Origin: Fibrobacterales bacterium
Lineage (GTDB): Bacteria > Fibrobacterota > Fibrobacteria > Fibrobacterales > JAOPTW01
NCBI GenBank assembly: GCA_051532035.1
Contig: JAOPTW010000037.1
Span: forward strand, 15,053-79,052
Reading direction: 5' to 3'
DNA: 64,000 nucleotides
Part shown: one piece after another, positions 770-64,000 of the stretch
Layout of the letters: the number at the start of each line of letters is the position of its first letter
How positions within the stretch are numbered: position 1 is the first letter of the stretch
Notes under the pieces: model-generated
What the model saw: the letters and a program-made list of their open reading frames with translations, nothing else
Told to the model about the DNA's origin: nothing
The model's database searches: none
Program-made: the position numbers and the translations under genes

Positions 770-1248
770 GGATGTCATGGAGTATCTGGGCTTTAGGAGT
801 GATTTTGGGTTTACCAGTATGAGAGAAGCAATAGTCTCAACATTTCCGTAATAACGTTCACAATGAGTGAACGTTATTACGGAAATGATTAGCGGAAGTA
901 GTTTGGGAAATGAGAATGAGCATTTAACTTTGCGGAACTTCTTGCAAATATTTGCCTTTTTAGTAAAAAATCAAGATGAGGAAATTAATAAACATAAGGA
1001 AAAATATGATAAATATACTTCGAACAAGGTGGGGGTCTATCTAGGGCTAGGATACTGTGGTGTCATTTGCGGCCCCATGCTTACGTTGAGGAAGCACGCA
1101 GGGGTGTGTTATGATTATCATTTACAGCTTGTTTACAGTAATAAAAGCCTAATTATCTATTATAGCATCGTTTCGCACCAGTGTGGTGAGATTATTAGCC
1201 CCTTATAATCAAGGATTCAACAACACTAAAAGTAATTTGGAATTTTTT

Positions 1249-38152: not shown

Positions 38153-38705
38153 GGCAATAGCGATAGGCTGTTCAAAAGGTGGATTATCTATTCTACCTCA
38201 AATTCTGATGCCGTTACCCGCTGATTTTTCTATTCCGATTATAATAATTCAACATTTAAAAGAAGGGGGCGGAGAATATCTGCCTAAATATCTTGATGAT
38301 AAATGCGCATTGAAAGTGCGGGAAGCACAGGAACTCGCACCACTTAAGAAGGGATATATTTATACTGCTCCCTCAGGGTATCATCTCTATATTGACAGTG
38401 AAAAAACCTTCTCCCTGAGCGTCGATGCTAAAGTGAATTATTCCCGTCCGTCAATTGATGTTTTTTTTGAGTCGGCTGCCAATGTTTTTACTTCAAGTTT
38501 GATAGGGGTACTACTCACCGGTGCAAATTGTGATGGTGCAAAAGGCATGGTGATGATAAAGAACAATGGGGGGCTCACTATAGCGCAGTCACTCGAAACC
38601 GCTGAGGCTCCGGCAATGCCGGGGAGTGCAATTGCTGAAGGTGTAGTAGATCATGTGCTGACCCCCGAAGATATTACGAACTTTATTTTGAAATTAACCA
38701 GATAA
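38121..38705 (+). CDS. cheB: Stand-alone CheB methylesterase (no receiver domain)
   Basis: GCSKGG (Ser), IIQH (His), RPSIDVFFESAA, LLTGANCDGA (Asp). Confidence 0.9.
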   Translation: MMTVLEATQYKAIAIGCSKGGLSILPQILMPLPADFSIPIIIIQHLKEGGGEYLPKYLDDKCALKVREAQELAPLKKGYIYTAPSGYHLYIDSEKTFSLSVDAKVNYSRPSIDVFFESAANVFTSSLIGVLLTGANCDGAKGMVMIKNNGGLTIAQSLETAEAPAMPGSAIAEGVVDHVLTPEDITNFILKLTR

Positions 38706-38709
38706 ACAA

Positions 38710-48378: not shown

Positions 48379-50577
48379 ATGTTTCGATTTGAATTATTGA
48401 TTACTCTGATATTTCTATTCATAAGTGTCGGAGCTACCAAAGATACGATAGAACTGAATAGGCAGGAATTGGACAATCTATTTGACATGTCAATAGAAGA
48501 TCTGATGTCCATGAAAATTACATCAGCAAGTTTAAGTAATTTGAAAAAGTCACTTTCTCCTACAGATGTTATTCTTATCACTTCAAATAATATACAGCAT
48601 TCTGGTGCGCGTTCGATTGATGAAGTGTTAGAAATATTTGTTCCGAGTTTTAATAAACTTATTAAAGGGAAGTTTGGTGATGCCATTGGGATTCGCGGAA
48701 TTATTAGTGATAGAAATAACAAAATTCTTTTTCTCGTAAATGGTCGAATCATGAATGATAGGAGTCTGATTGGTGCATTTTCAGAAAGACAAATTACTAT
48801 GCTCGCAGATATTGAGAGAATTGAAGTAATACAAAGCCCTCAATCCGCATTGTATGGAACAGGGGCCATTAGTGGAATAGTAAGTATTTATACCAAAACG
48901 GGATCAGAGTTTAAAAAGGGGGTGGAGGTTACTTCTCATGTCGGCCTCGTAGATAGATTTCAAAATGTTCAAATAAGACACGGCAAGTCAATAAACGATG
49001 CTATGAGTTACTCTATCTATTATGGGGTAGGCTATGCTGATGGTGCCAGTTCAAAGGATGCGCCTATTCGTATTTCTATCGATTCAGTTGATATAAATGG
49101 TGACACAATTGTGAGTAATAAAGATATCAGCTTTTTAACAAACAACCTTAATGCATCTGGTAGAATGAGGCATAAGGCACATGCTCAATTTGAGTTTGAC
49201 GACTGGAAAACCTGGGTTCGCTATGTACGAGGTGGGGGCGACTATAATTTTTCGCAACAGCAACTTTTTAAAAAGGCTGGTAAAAGTGATAGTCTCGTTG
49301 AGCATAGACTGGAGTACTCTCAATTCACAGCTCTTTCTGAATATACCCAGACCTTAGGTGACTTCTCAGTTGAAGGCCGGGTAAGTTATGATGACATGGG
49401 GGTTGTACAGCGTTCAAAAAATAGGATAGATGTTAATTATTTAGAAAAAGAGTTGTACTCTCGAGTGCTCTTAAAGTATTCAAATAATACATTGAGTTTG
49501 GCGGTAGGACCTTCAATGTCTTATGAGTGGTTTGGTGAGCCAGCAGATGGAAATGATCAATTAGATATGGTTATAAATTCAAAATTGAAGGGCTCTCTAT
49601 ATGACTCAACCCAGTCAGATTCTCTGAATGAATATTCAGAGAAATGGAGTACACTCATGACTTCTGTGGTATCCGAAGCTCAATATTTGCTCTTTGATTC
49701 ATTCAAAGTATTACTCGGATTGAGGGTTGATAAGCATAGCTATACCGGTTATTTGCTTTCGCCCCGTGCCTCAATGATATGGGGGAATGATGATTTACAA
49801 GCTCGGTTGAGCTATTCAAGGTCAAATAGAAGAACAGATGATGGTGATTTAAGGAGGGACTATTTAAATTCAGGAAAAAACGAATCCAATGATATAGAGA
49901 TAATAGACTTTTATGAGGCATCAGCAAATTATAATGTGTTTAAGGGGGTGACGGTCTCTCCTTCAGTTTTTTATGGAGACTATAATGTTGTAGGATGGGG
50001 CTGGTCAGAAAATAAATCTGTCCCAATAGGAGAATTAACCTATTGGGGAGCCGAAATAAAATTGGAGTATAGAGATAGACGAAACTACTCATATATTTCT
50101 CATAGCTATATTATGCCCATAGACTTTATACTTGATGGTGGTGAAGAGGCTTTCCCAACAAACAATGTTTCAAATATACCCTATGGCTATGGAAATAGTT
50201 TTCATAATTATCCGGATAATATTGTCAAACTATATACTCAATATTTTATTACTCCTGAACTGGGTATTAATGCTTCATTACAAATATTTGGTAAACTCTA
50301 TGGCGCGCAAGACGCCGTAAGTCACTCAAGTGAAATTGATAGCCCTGTTTTAAACTCATCGTATACCCATGGTTCAAACACTGCATTTGAAGCCTCGTAT
50401 TATTTGAATATGGGAATGAGTTACATAGTGATTGAAGGCCTAACCATAAACGTGCATGGTTATAATCTTCTTGGAATTATTGATGACAATTGGAACAAAC
50501 GCAATGAATTCCAAAGAAATTCTCAATATAGAATTCAACCTCTTTCAGCGGCACTGCAGGTGAATTGGGGATTTTAA
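48379..50577 (+). CDS. TonB-dependent receptor
   Basis: LFDMSIEDLM..ITSAS; plug motif IERIEVI..P.SALYG.GA.SGIV.I.TK; SPRAS; terminal WGF. Confidence 0.88.
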   Translation: MFRFELLITLIFLFISVGATKDTIELNRQELDNLFDMSIEDLMSMKITSASLSNLKKSLSPTDVILITSNNIQHSGARSIDEVLEIFVPSFNKLIKGKFGDAIGIRGIISDRNNKILFLVNGRIMNDRSLIGAFSERQITMLADIERIEVIQSPQSALYGTGAISGIVSIYTKTGSEFKKGVEVTSHVGLVDRFQNVQIRHGKSINDAMSYSIYYGVGYADGASSKDAPIRISIDSVDINGDTIVSNKDISFLTNNLNASGRMRHKAHAQFEFDDWKTWVRYVRGGGDYNFSQQQLFKKAGKSDSLVEHRLEYSQFTALSEYTQTLGDFSVEGRVSYDDMGVVQRSKNRIDVNYLEKELYSRVLLKYSNNTLSLAVGPSMSYEWFGEPADGNDQLDMVINSKLKGSLYDSTQSDSLNEYSEKWSTLMTSVVSEAQYLLFDSFKVLLGLRVDKHSYTGYLLSPRASMIWGNDDLQARLSYSRSNRRTDDGDLRRDYLNSGKNESNDIEIIDFYEASANYNVFKGVTVSPSVFYGDYNVVGWGWSENKSVPIGELTYWGAEIKLEYRDRRNYSYISHSYIMPIDFILDGGEEAFPTNNVSNIPYGYGNSFHNYPDNIVKLYTQYFITPELGINASLQIFGKLYGAQDAVSHSSEIDSPVLNSSYTHGSNTAFEASYYLNMGMSYIVIEGLTINVHGYNLLGIIDDNWNKRNEFQRNSQYRIQPLSAALQVNWGF

Positions 50578-50916
50578 CACGATTCCTGTGAGTGGTGCAC
50601 GATTACCAATGATATGGCACTGTTATCGGGAGTACGCTATTCTGGTGTTGTCCCTCCTGGTGAGTAATAGGCACCTTTAATCCTTTTAATAAGGACTACA
50701 AACAAGGAGTTTTTCTTTTGTGAGTACCTCTGTGGCGGGGAATGCAATAGGTGTTCGTATTCTATTAATGCCTATAGAGCCATAAATTCGCCAATTATTT
50801 GTAAAATAACCCAAGTAAAGTGTCTAAATGACACTATTGGGTAAAGCATTCGTTTACAAACGACTCTTTCCGCCTAACCGAGGTATCTTTGTTACAACTG
50901 CTGGGGGGCATTGTTG

Positions 50917-52140
50917 ATGAGAGAGACACCGAATTTGGGTACTATGCGTACTGTACGTAAAAAATCATTTTTTGATATCGCGAAACCGAAGAAAGAAGCA
51001 ACATTTTTTGACCTCGATGTCGCCACATCACGGTCGTTTAAAAAGAAACCAGAACAACCTATGCACCTCGATATTGCGGTATCGTTTACTCCAGAACAAT
51101 TGAATGATCACTTGTCACTTGAGCGTCTTGATGCTCTTATCCCCAAAAAAGTGATATCTAATACTAAACCTCTGATAGAATCTATAAACTTATCTATTCT
51201 AGGCACCCGACCTAACTCATATAAAGATGTTGTGTTAGAGAGCTATTCAGTTCTGATTGAACGGGTAAAAAGATTGTATACTGATATACTTAAGCAGAAA
51301 GAAACTACAGCACAGCCAGCCTTTGAAATTATCGATACCATTATTAAAGTTTTTGTGAGTGACCGTAATATCATGCTCAATCTCTGTAATCTAGAGACCA
51401 AAGATGATCACCTCTATCAGCATGTTGTTAAGATGGCTATATATTCAGTGAATATTGCTATTGCAATGGGTTGCTCAAAAGAAGAGATTAGAGAAATTGG
51501 TGTGGGAGCTCTCATGTCTGATATTGGAATGGCAGCCATAGCGAAGCGTATTCGTAATTTTAAGGGTACCTACACAAAAGAAGAACTGTATTATGTGAGA
51601 AAACACCCGATATTCTCTGCAAACATAATTGAGTCACTCGAGGGTTTTCCGGTTACTACCGCCATTATCGCCTATCAAACCCATGAGCGATCAAATGGCA
51701 AAGGATATCCGCGCAACAAGAGAGAGAATACCATTCACCGGTTTTCAAAAATTGTCGCCCTCGCAGATGTCTATACAGCTCTTTCGAGTAAACGTCCCCA
51801 TCGTCAAGCATACCGACCTTTTGAAGCGGTTCGCATGATTATTAGTATGGCAGACAAAGGGTGGTTTTCCAAAGAGGTTGTACAAGGTCTTCTGTCGTTT
51901 AGTTCACTCTTTCCTGTTGGTTCAATAGTAAAACTCAATACCAATGCCTATGGTAAGGTGGTCTCGGCAAGCGGTAAGTCTATCGCGGCGCCAGTAGTGG
52001 TCATTTTTACGGATAAAGAGGGGTATCGACTGGTACCTAAACAGTTTACAACAACTGATTTGAGTGTGAATTCTTCAATAAAAATTATTGGCACCAAAGA
52101 TAATCAATTTTTAGCGACTGCTGCTATGGTAGGATTTTAG
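50917..52140 (+). CDS. HD-GYP domain protein with degenerate HD motif
   Basis: LYQHVV, GALMSDIGM (SD in place of HD), HERSNGKGYP, ADVYTAL..RPHR, FPVGSIVKLNT. Start uncertain. Confidence 0.85.
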   Translation: MRETPNLGTMRTVRKKSFFDIAKPKKEATFFDLDVATSRSFKKKPEQPMHLDIAVSFTPEQLNDHLSLERLDALIPKKVISNTKPLIESINLSILGTRPNSYKDVVLESYSVLIERVKRLYTDILKQKETTAQPAFEIIDTIIKVFVSDRNIMLNLCNLETKDDHLYQHVVKMAIYSVNIAIAMGCSKEEIREIGVGALMSDIGMAAIAKRIRNFKGTYTKEELYYVRKHPIFSANIIESLEGFPVTTAIIAYQTHERSNGKGYPRNKRENTIHRFSKIVALADVYTALSSKRPHRQAYRPFEAVRMIISMADKGWFSKEVVQGLLSFSSLFPVGSIVKLNTNAYGKVVSASGKSIAAPVVVIFTDKEGYRLVPKQFTTTDLSVNSSIKIIGTKDNQFLATAAMVGF

Positions 52141-52164
52141 ATACTATACTTACATACACTGGCA

Positions 52165-52173
52165 TGGTATAAT
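52165..52173 (+). promoter_or_regulatory. Candidate extended -10 promoter
   Basis: TGGTATAAT about 125 nt upstream of the GTG at 52300. Confidence 0.35.
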
Positions 52174-52299
52174 TGTCGTACACAGTCACATAGAGAACAT
52201 ACTTGTTAAGAAATGTAAACGATGAAAGTACAAAAATAGGTACAATCTATGATTAAGGTGATTTGAACTCTAATCTATAGTAAGCTGCAAAAGGACTTA

Positions 52300-53385
52300 G
52301 TGGATTTTACTCAATATTATTCAAACTCTTACTCTGAGGCACGGAAGAAATTTTTAAAATTCTCAACAGAGGTGGGGGCAATTGTTTCTAGTGTGGAGCA
52401 TTCTGAGCTAGGGCCTAATGGAGAAAAGTTATATGCAGATTACTCACTGGTAGGTGATCCTCAAGCGAAAAAGGGGTTATTACTTTTTTCAGGAACACAT
52501 GGTGTTGAAGGCTTTGCTGGTTCTGCCATTCAATTAGCTATATTAAAAGTTTTTCGGCAAAACCCACTGAAGGGTGCTGTCAAAATGATCTTTGTTCACG
52601 GGGTTAATCCATATGGAATGGCTTATGGGAGAAGAGCTGATCACCAAAATATTGATGTAAATAGAAATTTTGTCGATTTTTCAAATGAGCTGTCTCGTAA
52701 CATACCCTATGGCTCCTTAGCTTGTTCAATTGCTCCAAGGAATATGTCGATTCTTTCTGAAATAGTCGCTTGGAGTAAGTTATTGCTGTATAGGGCTACA
52801 CAGGGTAGGCTCAAATCGCAGCACGCTTTACAAAAAGGTCAACGCTCACATGAGCGTGGACTCTTTTTTGGGGGGACTAAACCAAGTTGGTCTCACAGGG
52901 TATTAAAAAAAATCCTCAATGATCACAAAGGGGGCATTGAAAATTTGGTAGTGATAGATATTCATACTGGCCTTGGACCATATGGGGAAAGAAATCTATT
53001 TTCTGGAGCTTCTGATCACTCTGAGGAAGCAAAAAATGCTCGCCATATATGGAGTAACAAGTTTATTCAATGCGTTGATCAACATTCTAATACCCTAGAA
53101 GAACTCCCGGGAACTACTCGAGAATGTGTATTAGAAATTTTTCCTAAAAGTAACGTAACTGTAGTAACAATGGAATTTGGGACCTATAATCCCATTAAAG
53201 TATTTCGTGCACTGCGTAATGAAAATTGGGCTCATCATCATGCTGATGCAGATAGTCGTGTATATAGGGAGTCAAAAAAGAAGTTGTTAGACTGTTTTTA
53301 CCCTAATGATTTAGAGTGGAAACAATCTGTTTGTGACGCTGGTTTGTCAACTATTCAACAGGCTTTAAATGTGTTAGGCCGTTAG
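52300..53385 (+). CDS. DUF2817 / M14-like zinc carboxypeptidase or deacylase family protein
   Basis: Y..AR..F, SGTHGVEGFAGS (HxxE), DVNRNF, DIHTGLG, TMEFGT. Confidence 0.85.
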   Translation: MDFTQYYSNSYSEARKKFLKFSTEVGAIVSSVEHSELGPNGEKLYADYSLVGDPQAKKGLLLFSGTHGVEGFAGSAIQLAILKVFRQNPLKGAVKMIFVHGVNPYGMAYGRRADHQNIDVNRNFVDFSNELSRNIPYGSLACSIAPRNMSILSEIVAWSKLLLYRATQGRLKSQHALQKGQRSHERGLFFGGTKPSWSHRVLKKILNDHKGGIENLVVIDIHTGLGPYGERNLFSGASDHSEEAKNARHIWSNKFIQCVDQHSNTLEELPGTTRECVLEIFPKSNVTVVTMEFGTYNPIKVFRALRNENWAHHHADADSRVYRESKKKLLDCFYPNDLEWKQSVCDAGLSTIQQALNVLGR

Positions 53386-53607
53386 GTTTTACACAATTAT
53401 TACATGTCCTGATTAAATTTGAACAAAACTATTCGGAAACACGAGTATAGACGGGTATAAATTACCCCTGAATCATCTCTTATTAATTCCAATTATACTT
53501 TTACGCTGTTTGGTGTAATATGTATCTGTGTAGAGATCTAATAGCCTACTGTTATTTATAACTTTGCTGGTCTTGGGAGATAGCGTACGCTATTACAAAT
53601 ACATTTT

Positions 53608-56600
53608 ATGGGATTGAATATGAAAAATATGCAGATGGCTATTGTCGGAATGAGTTGTAGATTGCCTGGTGGAGTGAATTCACCTGATGAATTATGGGAA
53701 CTATTGAAAAATAAGAAAGACTCAATTTCAGAAATACCTTCTGACCGGTGGAACCCTGAAAATTATTTTCATAAAGAACAATCAGGGAAATCCTATTCAA
53801 AATGGGGTGGATTTATTGATTCAATAAATACCTTCGACCCGAGCTTTTTTGGGATATCACCAAGAGAAGCTCTGGGGATGGACCCGCAGCAAAGGTTGTT
53901 ATTGGAACTTGCTTGGGAAGCAATGGAAGACTCAGGTACTCTCCCAAAAGATCTTGAAAATAGTAATACTGGGGTGTATGTTGGAATATCAAGTCATGAT
54001 TATTGTGATTTGCAAACGGCACATGAAGCACAAAGTTCTATCGATGCGTATACCCAAACAGGGAATTGTAACAGTATTGCTGCAAACCGCATTTCCTATA
54101 TATTTAATTTTAAGGGTCCCAGTTTAGCAATAGACACTGCTTGTTCCTCATCACTCGTTGCCCTTGACTCTGCAGTAAAAGACCTTACCCTCGGTGTGTG
54201 TGATACCGCTCTTGTTGCTGGTGTTCAGGTGTTATTACGACCCGAAGTATTTACTGGCTTTTCAATGGCCTCTATGTTGTCTCCTACAGGGCGCTGTCAC
54301 AGTTTTAGTAATGATGCAGATGGGTTTGTGAGAGCCGAAGGTGGCGGAGTTGTCTTATTAAAACCATTAGAAAAAGCGATTGCAGATGGTGACACTATTC
54401 ATGCCGTAGTGTGTGCGAGTGGAACGAACCAAGATGGTAAAACGAAAGGGATGACGGTACCAAGTCAAGACTCTCAAATGAAATTGATAGAAGAGACGTG
54501 TGCGCGAGCAGGTATTGAACCACACCTCGTTCAATATGTTGAAGCACATGGTACGGGAACAAAAGTTGGTGACCCCATTGAAGCAAATTCTATCGGCACC
54601 GTGATTGGGAAAAAACGTACCAGCAATCGTATCAGCAATTGTATTATGGGGTCTATAAAAAGTAATGTGGGGCACCTTGAACCAGCATCGGGTATGGCTG
54701 GACTCTTAAAGACTGTTGTTGCTTTAAAACATGCTGAAATTCCAGCAAATATTCATGCAGAACAATTGAATGAAGATATTGATTTCGCAGGGCTTGGATT
54801 AACAGTACCGACCGAACATATGATGTGGCCTGAAAATGAAGATGGAAAACCGCGCTATGCAGGTATAAACTCCTTTGGTTTTGGTGGTGCAAATGCGCAT
54901 GTAATAGTTTCTGAAGCGCCAGCCGTCGCAAGCACTAAGGCGCAATCAGATAGTGTAAATCAAAAAGTATTGACCATTTCCTCTCAGTCAAGTCAAGCGT
55001 TGCGGTTAAATGCAATTGCCTATCGAGATGCATTGGAATCCATGAGTAACGAAGAATCTGCATCGATTAGTTTAGCGGATATTGCCTACTCGGCAAATTG
55101 TAAGAAAACACACCACAAAGAACGAATTGCTGTTATTGGATCTTCAATTGAAGAATGGTGTGAAAACCTTTCTCAATATATTGATAATGAAGCGGTAGAT
55201 TCAGTTGTAGAATCAAAAGAGACATCGAAACCTCATCCTATTGTCTATGTGTTCTCGGGAATGGGACAACAATGGGCTGGTATGGCGAAAGGTCTTTTAG
55301 AGTCAGAACCTGTATTTGCTCAAATGATTGCACGGTGCGATAAAGAATTATCAAAATATGTTGAGTGGTCTCTTTCGGAAGAACTATTAAAAGATACAGA
55401 ATATACCCTCGTTGATAAAACCTATATTGCACAACCGTTAATTTTTAGTATACAAGTTTCGTTAAGTGCCTTATTAGAATCGTGGGGAATACTCCCAAAT
55501 AAAATTGTAGGGCATAGTGTTGGAGAAGTTGCTGCAGCATATGTGTCGGGAGTACTCACGTTTGAAGATGCCATTCAGGTTATTTATCACCGGTCGCGTT
55601 TACAAAATAAAGCAGCAGGAACAGGCTCAATGCTTGCACTCGGTATTAGTGAAACAGAGGTGAATGATTATTTACTCAGTGAATACACTGGTGTGAGTAT
55701 CGCTGCGATTAACAGTTCAAGTTCAGTTACCCTTGCTGGTGACACTGATCAGCTGACCCTTATTGCAGAGGCTGCTCAAAGCAATGATGTTTTTAACCGC
55801 TTTTTAAAAGTTGATGTTCCTTACCATAGTCCAGGTATGGATCCGTACATGGAAGAGCTTACCATTGCCTTAGAAGAGTTAGATCCAAATGCTGCTCGTG
55901 TGGAACTCTATTCTACGGTACTCGGTAGTCAGATTACCGGTTTTGAAATGGATGGGGATTATTGGGCTGATAATATGAGAGAGCCGGTATTATTTAAAAA
56001 ATCCATTGAAGAGATGGCGCATGATGGGGCGGCAACATTTTTAGAAATAAGTGCACATCCAGTGTTAATGACTTCTCTTAAAGAAATATTAAGCGAGAGT
56101 ACTTTTGAACACTGTATCGAACGTTCACTCTATCGTAATAAAGATAATACCCATCAGGTGCAATTAATGATATCTACTCTGTATGTCATGGGGTATTCTC
56201 TTGATTGGAAATTGATTACCGGTGAAGGTTCATTTATTAATTTGCCCCGCTACCAATTTAATCGTGAAGTATATTGGAAAGAGCCAGAAATAATTAACAC
56301 TAAAAGAATTCAGAAAAATATTCGACCATTGTTAGGGTATAAGGAGCATACAAACTGGATTGAATTTGCCTTTGATATCAATAGTCATTCGGTTCCTTGG
56401 TTGCCGCACCATAAAATACAAGAGAAAACGGTAGTACCTGCAGCTGCATATATTGAGACCATTCTAGAATCAATGTCAGAATCAATATCTGATAAAAATG
56501 ATACACAATCATTTGCTTTGAATAACGTTGCGTTTAATAGAACACTTACCATTGATACCGTGGTTCCCAAAAAAGTTAAAATAGTATTGTTAGAGGACCC

Positions 56601-59600
56601 ACAATCATTTGAGATAATGAGTGCGACTTCTGGAGAAGAAGAGAAGTGGACAACTCATTCTGTGGGGAGTTACGAATATATGTCTCGGGCTCATTCTTTA
56701 GATTCAATTTCTCACGAATCTATTTTAAAGCGGTGTACTACATCTGTAGACGTTAATGAGATATATAACGAATTTGATCTCATGGGTTTAGGATATACGG
56801 ACCACTTTAAAAGCATTAAGGCTTTGTGGAGTGGTGCTAATGAATCAATTGCTAAATTATCATTACCAGGTGACGCCCAACAGGGAAGTGGATATGTATT
56901 GCACCCCGCTCTACTCGACGGGGCATTTCAGTCATTAATAGCTTGTATTCCAAAAAGCAGTTCAGGGAGATCACAAAGTTTGTTACCGGTGTTTCTTGAA
57001 AAAATACGGGTGTATCCAAAGAATATTGGAAATATGATGTATTGCAATGGTTCTATTGTAACTACTTCACCCAAAGGATACACCGGTGATATTGTTCTCT
57101 TTAATGAACACAATGTGATAGTTGCTGAAATTATTGGTCTGAGATTGCATGCCGTAGAAAATATTCAGTCACATGAATCTACAAAAAATATAGATGCTTT
57201 TGAATATGTATGGCAGTCGATCAATGGCCAAGAATCAATCGATGGATCTACTGATACGTGTACCGATATATTCTCTCGGTTTAAATATGAAAAATCTCAA
57301 TATGGTGCTCGTTTTAACAGAGATACCTACTATTCTGATGTGTCGACAGTATTAAATGAGCTGTCTCTCGGTTTTATGTATCGGGCGTTATGTCGTATTG
57401 GTTTATCAAAAATAGATGAGATTGATGTAGAAGGGCATTCTCTTATTAATCACCTCTCACCTCATGTAGAAAGCCTATTGAATCGGTGTTTGACTCTTTT
57501 GGAGGAGCGAGGATACCTTGAAAAGAATTCAGAAGAAGGGGTGTACCGGTTAATTAATGAATTAGATGTGTCTACTCTGAATGCGCAGTGGAATAGTGCA
57601 CTAGAAAAGTATCCATCGTACCTTGCCGAGTTAACACTCATTGCTCATTGTGGAGATACATTAGGATGTATATTTAATGATACCATAGATCCTGTAAAAT
57701 CTATGTTCCCTCAAATGAGTAATTCATTAGAACACTTGTATCAAGATTCACCATCGTCAAAAGTGTATAATCAAATAACCCGCCAAGCTATTTTAGAAAT
57801 GGTAGCTCAGTATCCAAAAGAAAAAAAGATTCGTATACTTGAAATAGGGGCTGGTTCAGGAGGGTTTACTTCTTCGATAATTGATGCGCTTCCGCAAGAG
57901 CGTACAGAGTATCATTTTACTGATGTAAGTGAAGACCTGCTCAATGAAGCGAAACTTAAATTTCATGATAAAGGGTGCATATCTTTTAGTCTGCTGGATA
58001 TCGAACGAGAAATATCAGAAGATAACAATGAGAAACAGCTCGGGATATATGATATTATAATATCCTATGATATCCTTCATGCGACTCAAAATATTTCATC
58101 TACTATTTCTCATATTAAACAATTAATGAATCCATCTGCCGCTCTATTTCTTATTGAGCTTACCGAGAAAGAACCCTGGCTTGATTTAGTGTTTGGTACG
58201 TTGCCTGGCTGGTGGCGGTTTAACGATCAACGGGTAGAGAGCAATCATCCGCTATTATCAGAGGATGAATGGAATGACCTTTTAAAGGCTGAAGGGTTTC
58301 ACTCAGTTGTGTCGTTTAATGATGATGTAATAGGCAATAAGGGTTTCCAATCGGTTATTTGTGCGCAAGGAGTTCCGGTAGCTCTCACAGAAAAACAATC
58401 TAATTCAGAATCAGAAAAAATAGTCATTACTGGCAGCTGTATCTGCATCTCTGATTCGGGTGAGCAGCATTCTACTCTGATTACAGCAATTGAGTCACAG
58501 TATGATTCAGTTATAATTATTGACTCAAAAAAATATGTAGACGCATCTATTTCAGATCAATTGTCTGAACACCTTCTCAACACTACTGATTGTAGCGATG
58601 TTATCTATTTGGTATCAAATGATATTGAAAATGATCAGTATTTTGCGACACAAAAAATACAGCTACTCACGCTATTAGATTGCATAAAGAGTATCAGTAG
58701 TAGTGCCATAGAACAACCCTCTTTAAGAGTAGTTACTCGGGGTGTGTGGAAGGTCGCAGAAGATAGTTCTTGTAATCCAATGCATGCAGGACTGTGGGGG
58801 TTGTGTAGAGTTGCAATGAATGAGTATTCAGGTCAACACATATCATTGGTTGATCTATCAGAAAAGATTGCTCCCGAAGAAATAGAGCAATTCCTAACGC
58901 TTCTACAAAATGGATCAGGAGAAGATGAAATTGCTATTCGCGGTACTGCACAGTATCAACATAGAATTAAAAAAGTCGCGAAGACGGCAGTGGCCATTGC
59001 ATCCAGTGCCCCGTTTACTATGGGGATTGACAAAGTGGGGAGTATTGATAACGTAGTATTCAATCAAGTAGCACGTGAAAAACCATATGATACTGAAGTT
59101 GAAATCGAAGTAAAAGCAGTAGCACTTAACTTTAAGGATATAGCAAAAACTATCGGACTTTTATCCGAAGATACAATGATGGGGACAGCATCTGGCTTCA
59201 ATCTTGGACTTGAATGTGCTGGTGTTGTGACGTCAGTGGGAATGGATGTAACTGACTATTCTGTCGGTGATCATGTAATTGCACTATTGCCGCGGAAAGG
59301 TATTGGGAAATATTCACTGTGTAATGCGAAGCAAGTATACAGAAAACCAAATAATATAACCTTTGAAGAAGCTGTTACGATTCCTGTAGTGTATTTTACT
59401 GCTTATTATGCCTTAAATAAATTGGCGCAATTAGAGGAGGGTGAGTCGGTGCTAATCCATGCAGGCGCAGGAGGAGTTGGACTTGCGGCAATAAAAATTG
59501 CGCTTCAAAAAAAGTGTATTGTATATGCTACTGCAGGGAGTCCTGTTAAAAGAGATTTACTGAGGGCACTTGGGGTGCATGTTGTTCTCGATTCAAGGTC

Positions 59601-61182
59601 TACTGAATTTTCTGATGAAATAATTAAACATACAAACGGCACAGGTGTTGATGTAGTATTAAACTCATTACCTGGTGATATCATGCTTAAAAGTATTGAG
59701 TGCATGGCCTCATTTGGACGTTTTGTCGAAATCGGTAAAAAAGATATTGAACAAAATAAGGTGTTGTTCTTAAAGGCATTTCAAAATAATTTATCCTATT
59801 TTGCTCTCGATACTGATAGACTTGTTGTCGAAAAACCTGAGGTTTCTTCGAGAGAAATGAATAGACTGTTAGATTTGATAGAATCATCCCATTACAGTGC
59901 GTTGCCTCACAGAACTTTTGATTTTGCAAATATGAAGCGGGCTATGAAATATATTAGTCAAGCAAAACATATTGGTAAAGTGGTGGTGTCCCTAAATGAA
60001 AATGATACTGTTGCATTAGATTCAAAAATCCCTGCTCTGGATATCGGTGATAATGAAACGTATATAGTAGCGGGAGGTGTTGGAGGTTTTGGTTTTAGCA
60101 CAGCTGAATGGCTGGCACATAATGGAGCAAAAACGATAGTTCTATTAGGGCGTAGTGGTAAAGTCAATGAAAACACCCAACAGAAAATTGATTCCTTACA
60201 ATCACAAGGAGTAGCAATTGTTGTTAAACAGGTTGATATCTCAAAAATGTCAGAAGTAACAGAATGTATTAATCAGCTTGCCGCATCATTACCGCCTATT
60301 AAAGGGGTGTTTATTACTGCTATGGTCTTAAAAGATGGGCCATTAAAAGAATCTACACACGAAGACTTTACAGCTGTTCTTGAGCCTAAAATGGCGGGGT
60401 CGTGGAACTTTCATAAGGCAACCTTAGGATTAGAATTAAAATTCTTTGTTATGTATTCTTCAATCACCACAACTGTCGGGAATGCCAATCAAGGTAATTA
60501 TGTAGCCGCAAATATGTATCTCGAACAACTCGCAGAGTATCGACAATCAATACACCTACCAGGAACAACTATTGGGTGGGGTGCAATTGGGGATGTAGGG
60601 CATGTTTCGGAACATCAAGAAATTAAAGACTACCTTTCTACTATTGGACTTCGTTCTATAGAGCCTCAGAGTGGCTTAAATGAAATGGGTATCGCTCTCA
60701 CAGAAAATGATTGTGCAGTTAGATATGTAGGGTCGGTTGATTGGGAGGCATGGAGCCGAAGTAAAACAGGGGTTTATTCAAATCGCTATGAATTCTTAAT
60801 GAAAAAGGGGAATCAATCGAGTGAAGAGGGTGAGTCGGTATTTGATTTAGATTCGCTACTCAGTATTGGGTCAATCGATGATATTAAGGACTGTCTAAAC
60901 GAAAAAATATGGAAAATTATTGGATTGGTGCTAAGAATATCTGACACGGAAATTGATAAGGATTCTACGCTTATAGATTTAGGAATAGATTCTTTGATGG
61001 TTGTTGAATTGAGTGCACTTATCGACGAAGAGTTCTCTGTTCAAATTCCTACAATGCATTTGTTTGCTGATATCACTATTCCTAATTTAACTAACATACT
61101 CATGGAAAAACTCAATATTGTACCCAGTGAAACAAGCGAAGTCGGTGATTCGGAAAAAATAGTAATGAGCAGTGAGTCTTAA
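53608..61182 (+). CDS. Single-module, fully reducing type I PKS/FAS: KS-AT-DH-cMT-ER-KR-ACP, no thioesterase
   Basis: KS DTACSSS/EAHGTGT/KSNVGHLE; AT GHSVG and VPYHS; DH HxxxxxxxxP and LLDGAFQ; cMT ILEIGAGSGG; ER LIHAGAGGVG; KR GGVGGFG and NYVAAN; ACP LGIDSL. Confidence 0.95.
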   Translation: MGLNMKNMQMAIVGMSCRLPGGVNSPDELWELLKNKKDSISEIPSDRWNPENYFHKEQSGKSYSKWGGFIDSINTFDPSFFGISPREALGMDPQQRLLLELAWEAMEDSGTLPKDLENSNTGVYVGISSHDYCDLQTAHEAQSSIDAYTQTGNCNSIAANRISYIFNFKGPSLAIDTACSSSLVALDSAVKDLTLGVCDTALVAGVQVLLRPEVFTGFSMASMLSPTGRCHSFSNDADGFVRAEGGGVVLLKPLEKAIADGDTIHAVVCASGTNQDGKTKGMTVPSQDSQMKLIEETCARAGIEPHLVQYVEAHGTGTKVGDPIEANSIGTVIGKKRTSNRISNCIMGSIKSNVGHLEPASGMAGLLKTVVALKHAEIPANIHAEQLNEDIDFAGLGLTVPTEHMMWPENEDGKPRYAGINSFGFGGANAHVIVSEAPAVASTKAQSDSVNQKVLTISSQSSQALRLNAIAYRDALESMSNEESASISLADIAYSANCKKTHHKERIAVIGSSIEEWCENLSQYIDNEAVDSVVESKETSKPHPIVYVFSGMGQQWAGMAKGLLESEPVFAQMIARCDKELSKYVEWSLSEELLKDTEYTLVDKTYIAQPLIFSIQVSLSALLESWGILPNKIVGHSVGEVAAAYVSGVLTFEDAIQVIYHRSRLQNKAAGTGSMLALGISETEVNDYLLSEYTGVSIAAINSSSSVTLAGDTDQLTLIAEAAQSNDVFNRFLKVDVPYHSPGMDPYMEELTIALEELDPNAARVELYSTVLGSQITGFEMDGDYWADNMREPVLFKKSIEEMAHDGAATFLEISAHPVLMTSLKEILSESTFEHCIERSLYRNKDNTHQVQLMISTLYVMGYSLDWKLITGEGSFINLPRYQFNREVYWKEPEIINTKRIQKNIRPLLGYKEHTNWIEFAFDINSHSVPWLPHHKIQEKTVVPAAAYIETILESMSESISDKNDTQSFALNNVAFNRTLTIDTVVPKKVKIVLLEDPQSFEIMSATSGEEEKWTTHSVGSYEYMSRAHSLDSISHESILKRCTTSVDVNEIYNEFDLMGLGYTDHFKSIKALWSGANESIAKLSLPGDAQQGSGYVLHPALLDGAFQSLIACIPKSSSGRSQSLLPVFLEKIRVYPKNIGNMMYCNGSIVTTSPKGYTGDIVLFNEHNVIVAEIIGLRLHAVENIQSHESTKNIDAFEYVWQSINGQESIDGSTDTCTDIFSRFKYEKSQYGARFNRDTYYSDVSTVLNELSLGFMYRALCRIGLSKIDEIDVEGHSLINHLSPHVESLLNRCLTLLEERGYLEKNSEEGVYRLINELDVSTLNAQWNSALEKYPSYLAELTLIAHCGDTLGCIFNDTIDPVKSMFPQMSNSLEHLYQDSPSSKVYNQITRQAILEMVAQYPKEKKIRILEIGAGSGGFTSSIIDALPQERTEYHFTDVSEDLLNEAKLKFHDKGCISFSLLDIEREISEDNNEKQLGIYDIIISYDILHATQNISSTISHIKQLMNPSAALFLIELTEKEPWLDLVFGTLPGWWRFNDQRVESNHPLLSEDEWNDLLKAEGFHSVVSFNDDVIGNKGFQSVICAQGVPVALTEKQSNSESEKIVITGSCICISDSGEQHSTLITAIESQYDSVIIIDSKKYVDASISDQLSEHLLNTTDCSDVIYLVSNDIENDQYFATQKIQLLTLLDCIKSISSSAIEQPSLRVVTRGVWKVAEDSSCNPMHAGLWGLCRVAMNEYSGQHISLVDLSEKIAPEEIEQFLTLLQNGSGEDEIAIRGTAQYQHRIKKVAKTAVAIASSAPFTMGIDKVGSIDNVVFNQVAREKPYDTEVEIEVKAVALNFKDIAKTIGLLSEDTMMGTASGFNLGLECAGVVTSVGMDVTDYSVGDHVIALLPRKGIGKYSLCNAKQVYRKPNNITFEEAVTIPVVYFTAYYALNKLAQLEEGESVLIHAGAGGVGLAAIKIALQKKCIVYATAGSPVKRDLLRALGVHVVLDSRSTEFSDEIIKHTNGTGVDVVLNSLPGDIMLKSIECMASFGRFVEIGKKDIEQNKVLFLKAFQNNLSYFALDTDRLVVEKPEVSSREMNRLLDLIESSHYSALPHRTFDFANMKRAMKYISQAKHIGKVVVSLNENDTVALDSKIPALDIGDNETYIVAGGVGGFGFSTAEWLAHNGAKTIVLLGRSGKVNENTQQKIDSLQSQGVAIVVKQVDISKMSEVTECINQLAASLPPIKGVFITAMVLKDGPLKESTHEDFTAVLEPKMAGSWNFHKATLGLELKFFVMYSSITTTVGNANQGNYVAANMYLEQLAEYRQSIHLPGTTIGWGAIGDVGHVSEHQEIKDYLSTIGLRSIEPQSGLNEMGIALTENDCAVRYVGSVDWEAWSRSKTGVYSNRYEFLMKKGNQSSEEGESVFDLDSLLSIGSIDDIKDCLNEKIWKIIGLVLRISDTEIDKDSTLIDLGIDSLMVVELSALIDEEFSVQIPTMHLFADITIPNLTNILMEKLNIVPSETSEVGDSEKIVMSSES

Positions 61183-61191
61183 GGGGGATGT

Positions 61192-62286
61192 ATGAGTAGT
61201 GCATTATTAAGTGAATATTTAGCAGACCCATTTCTCAAGGCCATATATAAAGACATAAAAAATGTTGGGTCCATGAAACCCATGATGGTTGAAATAACTC
61301 AAAACTGCAATTTGCGTTGTGAGGGTTGTTTTTTCTTCACGGATAAAATGGATAGGTTTAAAGCCCCTAAAGATGAAAAGGTATTTGATGAATTCTTGCA
61401 GCGTGAAAAAGAACGGGGGACCAATGACGTATTAGTAGTAGGTGGTGAGCCTGCATTGATGTTGCCTCGTGTTAAAAAAATTGTAGATACTTTTCGAACG
61501 GTTACGGTGGTTACGAATGGGGTTAAAAAGATTCCTATGGAAGGATTTGAAAATATAGCCCTTGCCATATCTGTGTGGGGAGACCATGAAACTGATACGC
61601 TTTTGAGAGGTAAAGGAACCAATAACATATTTGAAAAGGCATTGACTTACTATAAAGATGACCCGAGGGCACGGTGGTACTATACTGCAAGTGCTGGAAA
61701 CGCTGACCAAATTGAAGGCGTTGTCGATGAAATTGTAGAAAATGGTAATGTGGTACTTTTTAATTATTATGGTGATTTGGCTTCCAAAGGGTCTACTTTT
61801 GATCACACTATTGGATTTAAAGATGTTGCAGAGAAAATTGATGCTATGATTTTGAAACACCCCAAAAATGTGATATTTTCAAGTTATACGAATCATGTGA
61901 TTACTACTGGCACGTTGTATGATCAAAAATGGGGATACGATGTATGCCCTACAATGAGTAATGATAGAGTAGAAGCAGATCGTTTAGCGACAGGAAACCC
62001 ATTAAACCCTCACTTTAAAGTATTTGCACCTGACCTTAAGACTACGAAGTTATGTTGTCAGTCTCTTAACCGTAAGGATTGTTCTATTTGTTTTGATACA
62101 TGGGCTCATGAGGGATGGATTATGCTGAACCTCCAAAAACATTTGGGGTCTAAGCAGGAGTTTACTAACTGGCTTTCGGCGGTCTATGTGTACTATTTAA
62201 CTAATGGTGCACTTCCCTTAAAAATTGGTCGGAAACGGTTACCTGAAATGCATAGGCGTGTAATGGTGAAAGCAGAGGAGGGGTAG
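61192..62286 (+). CDS. Radical SAM enzyme with extra C-terminal cysteines
   Basis: CNLRCEGC (CxxxCxxC), GGEP, TNG; C-terminal CP...CC......DC..C; starts 9 nt after the PKS stop. Confidence 0.92.
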   Translation: MSSALLSEYLADPFLKAIYKDIKNVGSMKPMMVEITQNCNLRCEGCFFFTDKMDRFKAPKDEKVFDEFLQREKERGTNDVLVVGGEPALMLPRVKKIVDTFRTVTVVTNGVKKIPMEGFENIALAISVWGDHETDTLLRGKGTNNIFEKALTYYKDDPRARWYYTASAGNADQIEGVVDEIVENGNVVLFNYYGDLASKGSTFDHTIGFKDVAEKIDAMILKHPKNVIFSSYTNHVITTGTLYDQKWGYDVCPTMSNDRVEADRLATGNPLNPHFKVFAPDLKTTKLCCQSLNRKDCSICFDTWAHEGWIMLNLQKHLGSKQEFTNWLSAVYVYYLTNGALPLKIGRKRLPEMHRRVMVKAEEG

Positions 62287-62287
62287 T

Positions 62288-62869
62288 ATGGATGAAGAGT
62301 ACACAATAGTTGCAGTAGATTCCTTAAAAAAGAATTTGCAAAAAGCATACTATCACACCCAAAATGAATGGAGAAATAAAAAGCTTGGAATAGAAAATGA
62401 TGGTATAGACTCAAGTCTTACCATTGGTGATGTTGAGATATTATTAGCTGTTCTTAAAGGAAAATATCAAATTATTGGGGGTGTAAGGGGGGCAGTGTGT
62501 CATGGAGGGTCACAAAATAATTTACTCTTTGAACATTGGTTTAAGGGAGTTAAGTATCGAGATTATTTCCCTCAACATTCCAGTAAGGAAAACTACGCTG
62601 AAATATCTGGATTATTTATGAAGGAAAATGATGCTCGGCTGTCGCCTTATCTTTCTTTATTGGTTGAAGCTCTCTCTAATAATAATACGGTACCTGAAAT
62701 ACGCTATATCTACGCATATATCCGTAAACCTATGATTCCTATTTATCAATATATTGGAGAATCGTTACACTATACAATGGAAACGGTACCCCTTGGTGAA
62801 GCGTTTAATTCAAAAAGCTCTACTGTTGCAAGTGACGTTTCACTTATTGCTTTTACTGTATCTAAATAA
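62288..62869 (+). CDS. GNAT-fold protein (acyl-HSL synthase / N-acyl amino acid synthase-like)
   Basis: IIGGVR, YAEISGLFM, YIYA......IYQ.IG pattern; starts 1 nt after the radical SAM stop. Confidence 0.5.
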   Translation: MDEEYTIVAVDSLKKNLQKAYYHTQNEWRNKKLGIENDGIDSSLTIGDVEILLAVLKGKYQIIGGVRGAVCHGGSQNNLLFEHWFKGVKYRDYFPQHSSKENYAEISGLFMKENDARLSPYLSLLVEALSNNNTVPEIRYIYAYIRKPMIPIYQYIGESLHYTMETVPLGEAFNSKSSTVASDVSLIAFTVSK

Positions 62870-62891
62870 TATTAGTTCCTTTATTTAGTAT

Positions 62892-62928
62892 TACAAAAGC
62901 CCCCTGTGCAATACAGGGGGCTTTTGTA
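62892..62928. terminator. Bidirectional intrinsic terminator
   Basis: Perfect 16-bp stem TACAAAAGCCCCCTGT-GCAAT-ACAGGGGGCTTTTGTA between convergent genes. Confidence 0.9.
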
Positions 62929-62989
62929 TGAGCGTACTACAAGTACTCACAATTTTAATAGTATCATAGTACTTATAAGAACACGGTAC

Positions 62990-64000
62990 TTAGAGCTCAA
63001 CTACCATAACATTATCCAAATACACATCATTGCTATTTACCCCAATATTAAATACCACTCGTGCATTCATATCAGTTTGTGGCATAACAAAATCATAGGA
63101 GTAGTTTGATAGTGTAGGGGTGATAGATGTTGCAGCTATAGATCCATAGTTACTCCAAGGAGAGCCATCAGTTTCTAAGTGAGCTTCAATGGTACGATAG
63201 TCTGAGGCGCGAGCATCAAAACTAAATCGGTAGGTTTTCCCTTGTTCCAAAGGTAGGCCTCCTTGTTTGAATTGAACATTCCAGCTCGCTGAACCTCCGT
63301 TGTTGATAGCAAGTACGCCCTGACCACCATTGGTAGAGAATTGTGCATTGCCACCGTCAGCCAAGTAGAGATCCCAATTACTGGTGCCATAAGAGAAATC
63401 GCCATTAGAAATGAGATTTGTTGCAGTTACTTCGGGAAGTACTGAAAGAGATGCTGTTGTGGTAATGTTATTAAGAGTAAGAGTCATAATCCACTCACCA
63501 ACATCGGTTGAGACCACATGAGTATAATTAAACCATCCACCTCCGGTAGTTGTAAAGGTTGGCAAGCCTAATCCAGTAATTTGTGATCCAAACTGATCAT
63601 ATCCTCGATAGATAAGGGATGCTGAATTTCCAACAGTCACCGTTATGGGGTCAAATTCGATAGTGGTGAGCACGGGCTCCTCAACTTCTAATTCTACCAA
63701 GGTCACATTATCGATTGTAACATCACTTGAATTCGAGCCCACATTAAACACAATCCGAGCATTCATGTCGGTTGTATTCATAACGAAATCATGAGTAAAC
63801 ACTGAGGATGTCGTCGTAATAGAAAAAGGTGAGGTATTTGCATAGTTGGACCATGGTGAACCATCGGTCTCGAGGCGAACTTCAATCGAGCGTGCTGTTG
63901 CTCCATGTGCCTGAAAGCTTAATGAATAGTGTTTGCCTTGCTCAAGAGGAATTGAAACCTGCTTAAACTGAACATTCCATGTTGCTCCACCGCCATTGGA
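62990..64000 (-). CDS. Carbohydrate-binding protein with tandem CBM4/9-like modules; 5' part lies outside the window
   Basis: The frame is open to the window edge; two copies of WNVQFKQ..PLEQGK.Y..SF.A....R.IE..LETDGSPWSNY, plus NLISNGDFS and DNV. Confidence 0.85.
   Translation of the reverse strand, partial: SNGGGATWNVQFKQVSIPLEQGKHYSLSFQAHGATARSIEVRLETDGSPWSNYANTSPFSITTTSSVFTHDFVMNTTDMNARIVFNVGSNSSDVTIDNVTLVELEVEEPVLTTIEFDPITVTVGNSASLIYRGYDQFGSQITGLGLPTFTTTGGGWFNYTHVVSTDVGEWIMTLTLNNITTTASLSVLPEVTATNLISNGDFSYGTSNWDLYLADGGNAQFSTNGGQGVLAINNGGSASWNVQFKQGGLPLEQGKTYRFSFDARASDYRTIEAHLETDGSPWSNYGSIAATSITPTLSNYSYDFVMPQTDMNARVVFNIGVNSNDVYLDNVMVVEL

Follow-up and report, generated by a model that had tools for sequence, protein, structure and literature searches.

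Which product is made by a type I polyketide synthase (PKS) that ends without a release domain and is followed, on the same strand, by a radical S-adenosylmethionine (SAM) gene and by a small gene of a different kind? The question is raised by a stretch of 64,000 nucleotides on contig JAOPTW010000037.1 of a Fibrobacterales bacterium (assembly GCA_051532035.1), hereafter the window. The initial annotation, made from the sequence alone, had proposed that an iterative synthase makes a methyl-branched acyl chain, that the radical SAM enzyme modifies it and that a GNAT-fold protein releases it as an amide. In this study the three genes, together with an upstream DUF2817 gene, were found to form one block (the island) that is missing from a same-genus genome, and the radical SAM enzyme was found to belong to a family that recurs beside PKS genes and beside lipoate-assembly genes. 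We regard the reading of the island as a self-contained four-gene pathway for a modified, methyl-branched fatty amide as an even call. The radical SAM family with its two conserved contexts is a more interesting result than the island itself.

The three open reading frames (ORFs) lay on the plus strand where the initial annotation had placed them, with gaps of 9 nt between the PKS and radical SAM genes and 1 nt between the radical SAM and third genes (Table 1). This tight coupling, together with the Shine-Dalgarno-like sequence before the radical SAM gene, supports one pathway. The DUF2817 gene ends 222 nt upstream of the PKS gene. The other island ORFs of at least 80 aa were short antisense frames only (ORFs below 80 aa were not searched). 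The island is flanked by genes for a TonB-dependent receptor and an HD-domain protein on the left, and by a minus-strand gene for a carbohydrate-binding module (CBM) protein on the right.

The window's own contig was compared by blastn with contig C58 of G001, a same-genus genome that is 94% complete. Window positions 50805-52140 aligned to G001 38353-39688, ending at the stop codon of the HD-domain gene, and positions 62892-62947, which hold a hairpin, aligned to 39740-39797 (91%). Between these two alignments no match to window 52141-62891 was obtained in G001, where the flanking matches are only about 50 nt apart and the hairpin stands directly 3' of the HD-domain gene. The left-hand genes have orthologues in G001 (91% identity for the TonB-dependent receptor, 89% for the HD-domain gene), while DUF2817 (E ≤ 1e-10), the KS-AT region of the PKS, the radical SAM gene and the third gene were all absent from it. 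Window 52141-62891 is a single insertion/deletion block carrying the four genes. The membership of the M14-like DUF2817 gene, left undecided in the initial annotation, is settled in its favour, as the gene sits inside the 10.75-kb block missing from G001.

The initial annotation had also listed a strong terminator after the third gene. A stable hairpin does follow, a perfect 16-bp inverted repeat (arms 62892-62907 and 62913-62928) with A and T runs and a folding energy of -32 kcal/mol (z -7.6; equally stable shuffles, 0 of 200). It was not listed by the consensus terminator scan and was recovered by folding and repeat search. However, since the hairpin follows the HD-domain gene directly in G001, it is the original terminator of that gene, according to the junction alignment, and not a feature of the island.

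None of the 40 relatives searched had the third gene, the radical SAM gene or the KS-AT region, and a search of 295 other genomes of the phylum for the third gene also gave no match. We read this pattern of absence as a gain in the lineage of the window, with loss in G001 as the alternative; the island was probably acquired horizontally. Mobile-element signs at its borders were sought as flanking direct repeats, tRNA genes or a GC shift, and none was found; its GC content equals that of the flanks. Contigs of a DNA run span both island junctions; this run may be the source sample, so they do not count as independent support.

Table 1. Positions of the genes and other features considered here (window coordinates unless a locus, L, is named).
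Feature	Coordinates	Strand	Remarks
Island	52141-62891	+	10.75 kb, between the stop of the HD-domain gene and the terminator of that gene
DUF2817 (M14-like) ORF	52300-53385	+	361 aa
PKS ORF	53608-61182	+	2524 aa
Shine-Dalgarno-like GGGGGA	61183-61188	+	Immediately 3' of the PKS stop, 3 nt 5' of the radical SAM start codon; read from the sequence
Radical SAM ORF	61192-62286	+	364 aa
Third gene, GNAT-fold ORF	62288-62869	+	193 aa
Two-way intrinsic terminator hairpin	62892-62928	both directions	Common to window and G001
Radical SAM + FAAL-PKS module	L011:9986-19747, L033:9989-19315, L043:9875-19992, L050:9986-19735, L051:9902-18243		
Lipoate-context loci	L010:5402-11116, L008, L012, L015, L020, L023, L032, L035, L037, L042		
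Lipoate-context loci, continued	L044, L046, L047, L052, L053, L059-L062, L064, L065, L067-L070, L072		

Pfam assigned to the PKS, all above cut-off, ketosynthase (KS, 11-384), acyltransferase (AT, 546-853), dehydratase (DH, 917-1186), C-methyltransferase (cMT, 1397-1565), enoylreductase (ER, 1828-2127), ketoreductase (KR, 2151-2328) and phosphopantetheine-binding acyl carrier protein (ACP, 2436-2496) domains. No thioesterase (TE) or reductase domain follows the ACP in Pfam, and the protein ends 28 residues later. A motif script located KS C179/H314/H356, AT G635-H-S-V-G, DH D1104xxxQ, cMT ILEIGAGSG, ER HAGAGGVG, KR GGVGGFG and Y2298xxxN, and ACP GIDS2462L. The order KS-AT-DH-cMT-ER-KR-ACP, the catalytic residues and the missing release domain thus stood as initially annotated, but the claim that all motifs are intact did not extend to the N-terminal motif of the DH domain (see below). 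Judged from its domains, the protein is a single-module highly reducing type I PKS. NCBIfam matches (PKS_plus_SDR, Pks2) were far below their cut-offs. The start is ambiguous: the public collection holds a 2515-aa version, nine codons shorter. Four in-frame ATGs lie within the first ten PKS codons (window 53608-53635), and the 2515-aa version uses the fourth.

The best full-length PKS homologues among 5.8 billion proteins were 38-40% identical and were single-module proteins with the same domain order, several of them from Nostocaceae. A thioesterase was present in homologues P0213, P0216 and P0219 and absent from P0226 and P0207. Four KS matches were obtained in the genome, and only the island PKS was of type I. 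Iterative use of the synthase is suggested because it has a single module and no other type I KS gene is present in the genome. Two matches to the phosphopantetheinyl transferase (PPTase) family were found elsewhere in the genome, in ORFs of 132 aa and 243 aa. The 243-aa, Sfp-sized ORF is separated by about 14 kb from a pair of stand-alone KS genes of 418 and 419 aa (G000:C64:29044-29352 and C64:43120-45983), which possibly belong to another acyl-chain pathway of this genome.

The radical SAM protein carries the cluster motif C39xxxC43xxC46 and matched PF04055 with 31.9 bits (cut-off 29.5). Matches to curated families were weak and N-terminal only (best NCBIfam match 32 bits, cut-off 225), and Pfam gave no SPASM match. 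There were 249 homologues at E ≤ 0.001; the 120 listed were 49-56% identical (best 56%) and came from Chloroflexota, Cyanobacteriota, Bacteroidota, Calditrichota, Acidobacteriota and other phyla. The genome of the window holds a single copy of the family. Seventy columns were invariant in 25 aligned family members, and the radical SAM protein of the island keeps every one of these residues. C252, C288, C289, C297 and C300 were invariant in all 25; these five extra cysteines would be enough for an auxiliary cluster. The AlphaFold model is a partial TIM-barrel (pLDDT 80, pTM 0.85) with low confidence in parts of the cysteine-rich segment (pLDDT below 50 at 255-260 and 288-296).

The best fold matches of this model were BlsE (Z 16.0), SkfB (15.4) and anSME (14.2), followed by ChlB, SuiB, viperin, MoaA (11.9) and the lipid-coupling GDGT-MAS (11.8). 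Lower scores were obtained for the B12 enzymes Mmp10 and TsrM (Z 10.3 and 6.9) and for HemN (8.0). From the predicted model, the enzyme was concluded to be probably SPASM/twitch-like, with one probable auxiliary cluster; its core fold resembles that of the SPASM/twitch enzymes, and its C-terminal cysteine-rich extension may correspond to theirs, at 12-18% identity. A methylase or cyclopropanase of the B12 or HemN type was considered and rejected, as Pfam and NCBIfam gave no B12 or HemN-like domain in the 364-aa protein and the corresponding fold scores were below the SPASM/twitch matches. Since the enzyme has no methylase features, labelling with CD3-methionine would report mainly on the cMT domain.

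In a census of the family, for which one genome per species was scanned, at least 601 stretches encoding a relative were detected, and 77 loci were fetched and kept. A KS gene was present within 10 kb of the radical SAM gene, always on the same strand, in 18 of the 77. The hosts of these PKS-linked loci were Nostoc, Acidobacteriota, Myxococcota, Pseudomonadota and an unclassified metagenome-assembled genome (MAG), and the gaps between radical SAM and PKS genes were -4 to 111 nt in the six loci measured. The initial proposal that a radical SAM enzyme and a type I PKS act as partners thus gains support from same-strand neighbours in at least four other phyla.

The ORFs of nine PKS-linked loci were scanned with Pfam. 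In L011, L033, L043, L050 and L051 (Acidobacteriota, Myxococcota and a proteobacterial MAG), the radical SAM gene is followed by a gene for a single protein with the domains fatty acyl-AMP ligase (FAAL)-ACP-KS-AT-DH-KR-ACP-TE, without the AT in L051. In L056 it is followed by KS-AT-DH-cMT-ER-KR-ACP-TE, which is the order of the window plus a thioesterase (KS identity 52%). L006:68-20512, from Nostoc punctiforme NIES-2108, holds two tandem family members within a larger PKS cluster that also encodes an HMG-CoA-synthase beta-branching cassette, KS-ACP, FAAL-ACP-TE, a class 3 lipase and an HlyD/FtsX exporter; the arrangement is similar in L007, L013, L014, L016, L017 and L019. Lipid genes near PKS-linked loci were a fatty acid desaturase (L050), PlsY with FakA/DegV (L011) and a patatin (L033); L011 also has a B12 radical SAM gene nearby.

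The second context was found in 35 of the 77 loci, where the radical SAM gene lies among one or more of the genes for GcvH, LplA, two other radical SAM enzymes, electron transfer flavoprotein subunits (ETFβα) and a CCG/Fe-S oxidoreductase. GcvH, LplA and both other radical SAM genes were all present in 26 loci. The sister clade is embedded in operons of the order GcvH/LbpA-LplA-LipS1-LipS2-(LplA-like)-X-ETFβα-CCG oxidoreductase, in which ETFβα and the QmoC/HdrD-like CCG oxidoreductase are usually present. In NCBIfam the two other radical SAM proteins scored 234 bits for LipS1 (cut-off 230) and 199 bits for LipS2 (below the cut-off of 270). This gene set corresponds to the lipS1/lipS2 and type II sHdr-etfAB-emo clusters described in excerpts of PMC10332631 and PMC11094781. 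The text excerpts of these two papers, supplementary tables aside, name no third radical SAM enzyme in the lipS1/lipS2 clusters. The sole family copy in the genome of the window differs from those clusters in adjoining a PKS gene and not a lipoate operon.

A quick maximum-likelihood tree was built from 76 loci and the window (L044, whose match spans only 250 aa, was left out). One clade of 43 rows contained 34 lipoate-context rows and 9 without context, several of the latter on short contigs. The remaining 34 rows comprised all 19 PKS-context rows, including the window, and 15 without context; the split had an SH-aLRT value of 99. The link between radical SAM and PKS genes drawn in the initial annotation was therefore borne out as a recurrent adjacency, but the family is not PKS-specific. 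The PKS and lipoate contexts of the family were both missing from the open-access literature searched.

The third protein is a near-orphan. A full HMMER pass over 1.84 billion representatives returned three homologues, P0122 (80% identity), P0123 (34%) and P0124 (27%), and a word-indexed search recovered P0122 only. The protein had no Pfam, NCBIfam or PADLOC match, in Pfam not even at E ≤ 10, and one of the four aligned homologues of the third-gene set matched PF13444 (E 0.12). The alignment conserves W28, D48, GGxR67 and E105-I-S107-x-L-F, columns which we take to resemble the signature of LuxI and N-acyl-amino-acid synthases. A profile search against the Protein Data Bank (PDB) gave cofilin as best match (E 0.24), treated as noise. 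A metagenome scan for relatives (alignment A2) returned 575 pattern stretches, none encoding a relative. A 196-aa ORF directly 3' of the radical SAM gene of Aquimarina (L003) was examined as a third-gene homologue and rejected (BLASTP E 4.4).

By structure, the third protein matched FeeM (2g0b) first in Foldseek (E 4.2e-6, TM 0.57-0.62) and in VIA-align (Z 12.5, rmsd 3.3 over 165 residues). N-acyl-homoserine-lactone (AHL) synthases matched as well (TofI Z 11.2, LasI Z 10.9; BjaI and MesI were also listed). PDB matches numbered 223 at E ≤ 0.001, those listed all being GNATs, and 170 chains at Z ≥ 8. A protein language-model search returned clusters with PF21926 FeeM (62%, 45% and 49% of members), PF13444 and T_hemolysin at 0.92-0.93. 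We therefore assign a GNAT fold to the third protein with moderate confidence, in line with the initial annotation of this gene: the predicted model has GNAT topology and FeeM is on top in two aligners. The likeness to FeeM is one of fold and language-model score, at 12-16% sequence identity. FeeM/LuxI-type enzymes transfer an acyl group from ACP or CoA to form an amide, and the partner of FeeM is a free-standing ACP, not a PKS. As FeeM is an N-acyl amino acid synthase, the best structural match would fit the amide release initially suggested. A complex prediction of the third protein with PKS residues 2425-2524, which hold the ACP, scored 0.00 against a mark of 0.32, a value that weighs on neither side where binding is concerned.

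The pathway that we propose runs in four steps. In the first, the single-module PKS, used iteratively in the manner of a fatty acid synthase (FAS), would assemble on its own ACP an acyl chain that is saturated and C-methylated; the 243-aa PPTase encoded elsewhere in the genome could activate this ACP. In the second, the radical SAM enzyme would remove a hydrogen atom from an unactivated carbon while the chain is bound to its carrier, and the five invariant C-terminal cysteines would hold an auxiliary Fe-S cluster that allows an oxidative step; among the possible outcomes are a desaturation, a ring, a cross-link or a C-S bond. We infer from the PKS-linked loci that the PKS-bound chain is the substrate. 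In the third, the FeeM-like GNAT would transfer the ACP-bound acyl group to an amine, probably that of an amino acid, and so give an N-acyl amide. The PKS may lack a thioesterase, unlike L056, P0213, P0216 and P0219, because the FeeM-like enzyme off-loads the chain. In the fourth, the DUF2817 hydrolase, which arrived with the block, may cleave or recycle the amide. This protein matched PF10994 over its full length (E 1.8e-100, residues 7-345) and MpaA weakly (E 1.8e-5, far below cut-off), and it is called M14-like because of these two matches; we infer that it is an amidohydrolase. Searched with tblastn, DUF2817 had no match in any of the 77 radical SAM loci. Iteration, the substrate and chemistry of the radical SAM enzyme, the GNAT's acyl donor and acceptor and the part played by DUF2817 are thus proposals, built upon the observed locus anatomy, island borders, PKS-radical SAM association and folds.

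Several observations weigh against this pathway. For the synthase, the N-terminal DH motif reads H935xxxE939xxxxP944, with Glu in place of the usual Gly. For the radical SAM enzyme, the sister clade stands in a lipoate context, the branch of the window's protein is long (0.91, median 0.21) and could reflect a changed or relaxed function, and the open-access literature searched contained no study of the family and no product for any member. For the third protein, the profiles of FeeM (PF21926), Acetyltransf_5 (PF13444) and LuxI (PF00765) do not match; its best structural model has pLDDT 66.7 and pTM 0.65 (the other four models, pLDDT 43-48); and FeeM leads other GNATs by less than one Z unit in VIA-align. 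LuxI AHL synthases have a conserved Arg in an E-x-S-R motif, and E-I-S-R-L-F is present in two distant homologues, but the third protein of the window has Gly for this Arg (E105-I-S-G-L-F). Finally, the co-occurrence of all three genes elsewhere, whose lack the initial annotation had named as a refutation, was not found among the loci examined, the contexts of the three third-gene homologues not being included.

In the explanation that survives best after our own, though we judge it unlikely, the PKS and the radical SAM enzyme cooperate as proposed and the GNAT is an ordinary acetyl-CoA- or acyl-CoA-dependent enzyme for tailoring or self-protection. The chain would then be released by hydrolysis, by a trans-acting thioesterase, by the DUF2817 hydrolase or by acyl transfer from the ACP into membrane lipids. 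Many CoA-dependent GNATs scored Z 10.2-12.0 beside the 12.5 of FeeM, the silence of the three profiles fits this reading, and a GNAT gene was found in none of the nine Pfam-scanned PKS-linked loci. However, two independent aligners put FeeM first and the AHL synthases TofI and LasI are among the matches, and both the 1-nt coupling to the radical SAM gene and the thioesterase missing in comparison with relatives fit a role in release.

A second explanation, which we consider improbable, takes the island for a passenger of recent acquisition, decaying or silent, with intact ORFs that make no product in this organism. Its absence from the 40 relatives would agree with this, as would the long radical SAM branch, the near-orphan third gene and the variant DH motif. 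By contrast, all four ORFs are full-length, the checked radical SAM invariant residues and PKS catalytic residues are all kept, and the GC content does not set the island apart from its flanks. In a metatranscriptome library from the same sample, five short contigs of 151-224 nt, with a likeness of at least 99% throughout, fell on the island: DUF2817 and the PKS had two each, the radical SAM gene had one, and the flanking HD-domain and CBM genes had none. These contigs on three of the four genes are a weak hint of island expression; DNA carry-over is possible and counts against the proposed pathway as well. The parts of the island without such contigs are no evidence of silence.

The weakest explanation, that the radical SAM enzyme is unrelated to the PKS and is a maturase of peptides that are made on the ribosome and modified after translation (RiPPs), a viperin-like defence enzyme that modifies nucleotides or an enzyme of cofactor maturation, is very improbable: the closest folds do include the RiPP maturases SkfB, SuiB and ChlB as well as viperin, PADLOC reports its prokaryotic viperin (pVip) model at 32 bits and the sister clade stands in lipoate/sHdr-type operons, but the pVip and NCBIfam matches are limited to the generic cluster-binding segment (about 30-115), PKS adjacency recurs across phyla with operon-like spacing, and the island ORFs of at least 80 aa besides the four genes (shorter ones not being searched) are short antisense frames. 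On the same ground, a pVip defence enzyme was rejected as an identification of the radical SAM protein.

How does the pathway proposed for the island compare with known systems? In capsule-type loci, WcbR/RkpA synthases stand in a capsule gene context with an aminotransferase-type partner gene. The initial annotation had noted the absence of such a partner, and neither the four genes of the island nor those flanking it gave one in Pfam and NCBIfam, or a capsule context. SupA has the domain order of the island PKS, methyltransferase included. To our knowledge, no product has been known for well over a decade for sup, swf and their relatives, that is, single-module FAS-like PKSs with a radical SAM neighbour. 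The island resembles sup and swf in having a large FAS-like type I module and then a radical SAM gene, in a short operon whose lipid product is unassigned.

In excerpts of PMC3908369 on the swf cluster of a sponge symbiont, SwfA is KS-AT-DH-ER-KR-ACP, SwfB a reductase-sulfotransferase (R-ST) and SwfC a radical SAM protein of 585 aa that has a B12-binding domain and is a predicted methylase. The island differs in its 364-aa radical SAM protein without a B12 domain, in the lack of an R-ST gene and in the presence of a FeeM-like GNAT. Membership of the swf group as defined in those excerpts (PMC3908369) was rejected, since the four island genes encode neither an R nor an ST domain, and a B12 radical SAM is also lacking. 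The island PKS, whose identity to proteins of the collection does not exceed 40%, is set beside SwfA and SupA by domain order, not by direct sequence comparison.

The jawsamycin-type radical SAM enzyme is a HemN-like cyclopropanase. In pathways of the jawsamycin or polycyclopropanated fatty acid type, as outlined in excerpts of PMC13389473, the chain of an iterative PKS is modified by a partner radical SAM enzyme. The island enzyme departs from this type in its HemN score of Z 8.0, set against 14-16 for BlsE, SkfB and anSME. The SPASM/twitch enzymes that it resembles (BlsE, SkfB, anSME, MoaA and GDGT-MAS) have substrate contexts unlike PKS or lipoate operons. No close match to a characterised cluster was found, an antiSMASH/MIBiG comparison not being included, and the open-access literature searched held nothing relevant on pairs of a PKS and a FeeM-like protein.

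The radical SAM family is large and conserved, with recurrent contexts beside PKSs and in LipS1/LipS2 lipoate assembly. One tentative and rather doubtful generalisation is that its members act as carrier-arm enzymes, which would functionalise an unactivated carbon of an acyl chain held on a swinging-arm carrier: octanoyl- or lipoyl-lysine on GcvH/LbpA in one clade, and acyl-phosphopantetheine on the PKS ACP in the other. Were one chemistry common to both contexts, lipoate-type C-H functionalisation and the tailoring of polyketide lipids would be connected through this family. The products of the PKS-linked clade would, on the carrier-arm reading, be modified lipids of a new class, thiolation, cross-linking or cyclisation being examples of the modification; in the present case they would be released as N-acyl amides by a FeeM-like enzyme, recruited instead of a thioesterase. 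The proposed exchange of a thioesterase for a FeeM-like acyltransferase offers a concrete release step, predicts the N-acyl amide class and guides detection, and the island, a compact four-gene unit with clean borders, is expressible as it is.

Other features of the window were also recorded. Right of the hairpin, from window 62948-64000 to about 66874 (contig coordinates beyond the window), there is a second difference from G001: about 3.9 kb, including the minus-strand CBM_4_9 protein, have no counterpart at the syntenic place, while the CBM_4_9 family is multi-copy in G001 (16 matches). The distance from the TonB-dependent receptor gene to the HD-domain gene is about 230 nt in the window (50577-50805) and about 1.85 kb in G001 (C58:36501-38353). 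A giant ORF at 1183-8607 and its neighbour were considered as a paralogous PKS/radical SAM pair and rejected, being an adhesin-like repeat protein and an RDD protein with no radical SAM similarity. The adhesin-like protein has 2474 aa and carries ten Big_9 stretches with cadherin-like, PKD and DUF285 domains. A long series of ORFs on one strand extends over window 20326-45254, presumably the first candidate system of the initial annotation, and includes proteins of 867, 736, 1358 and 827 aa.

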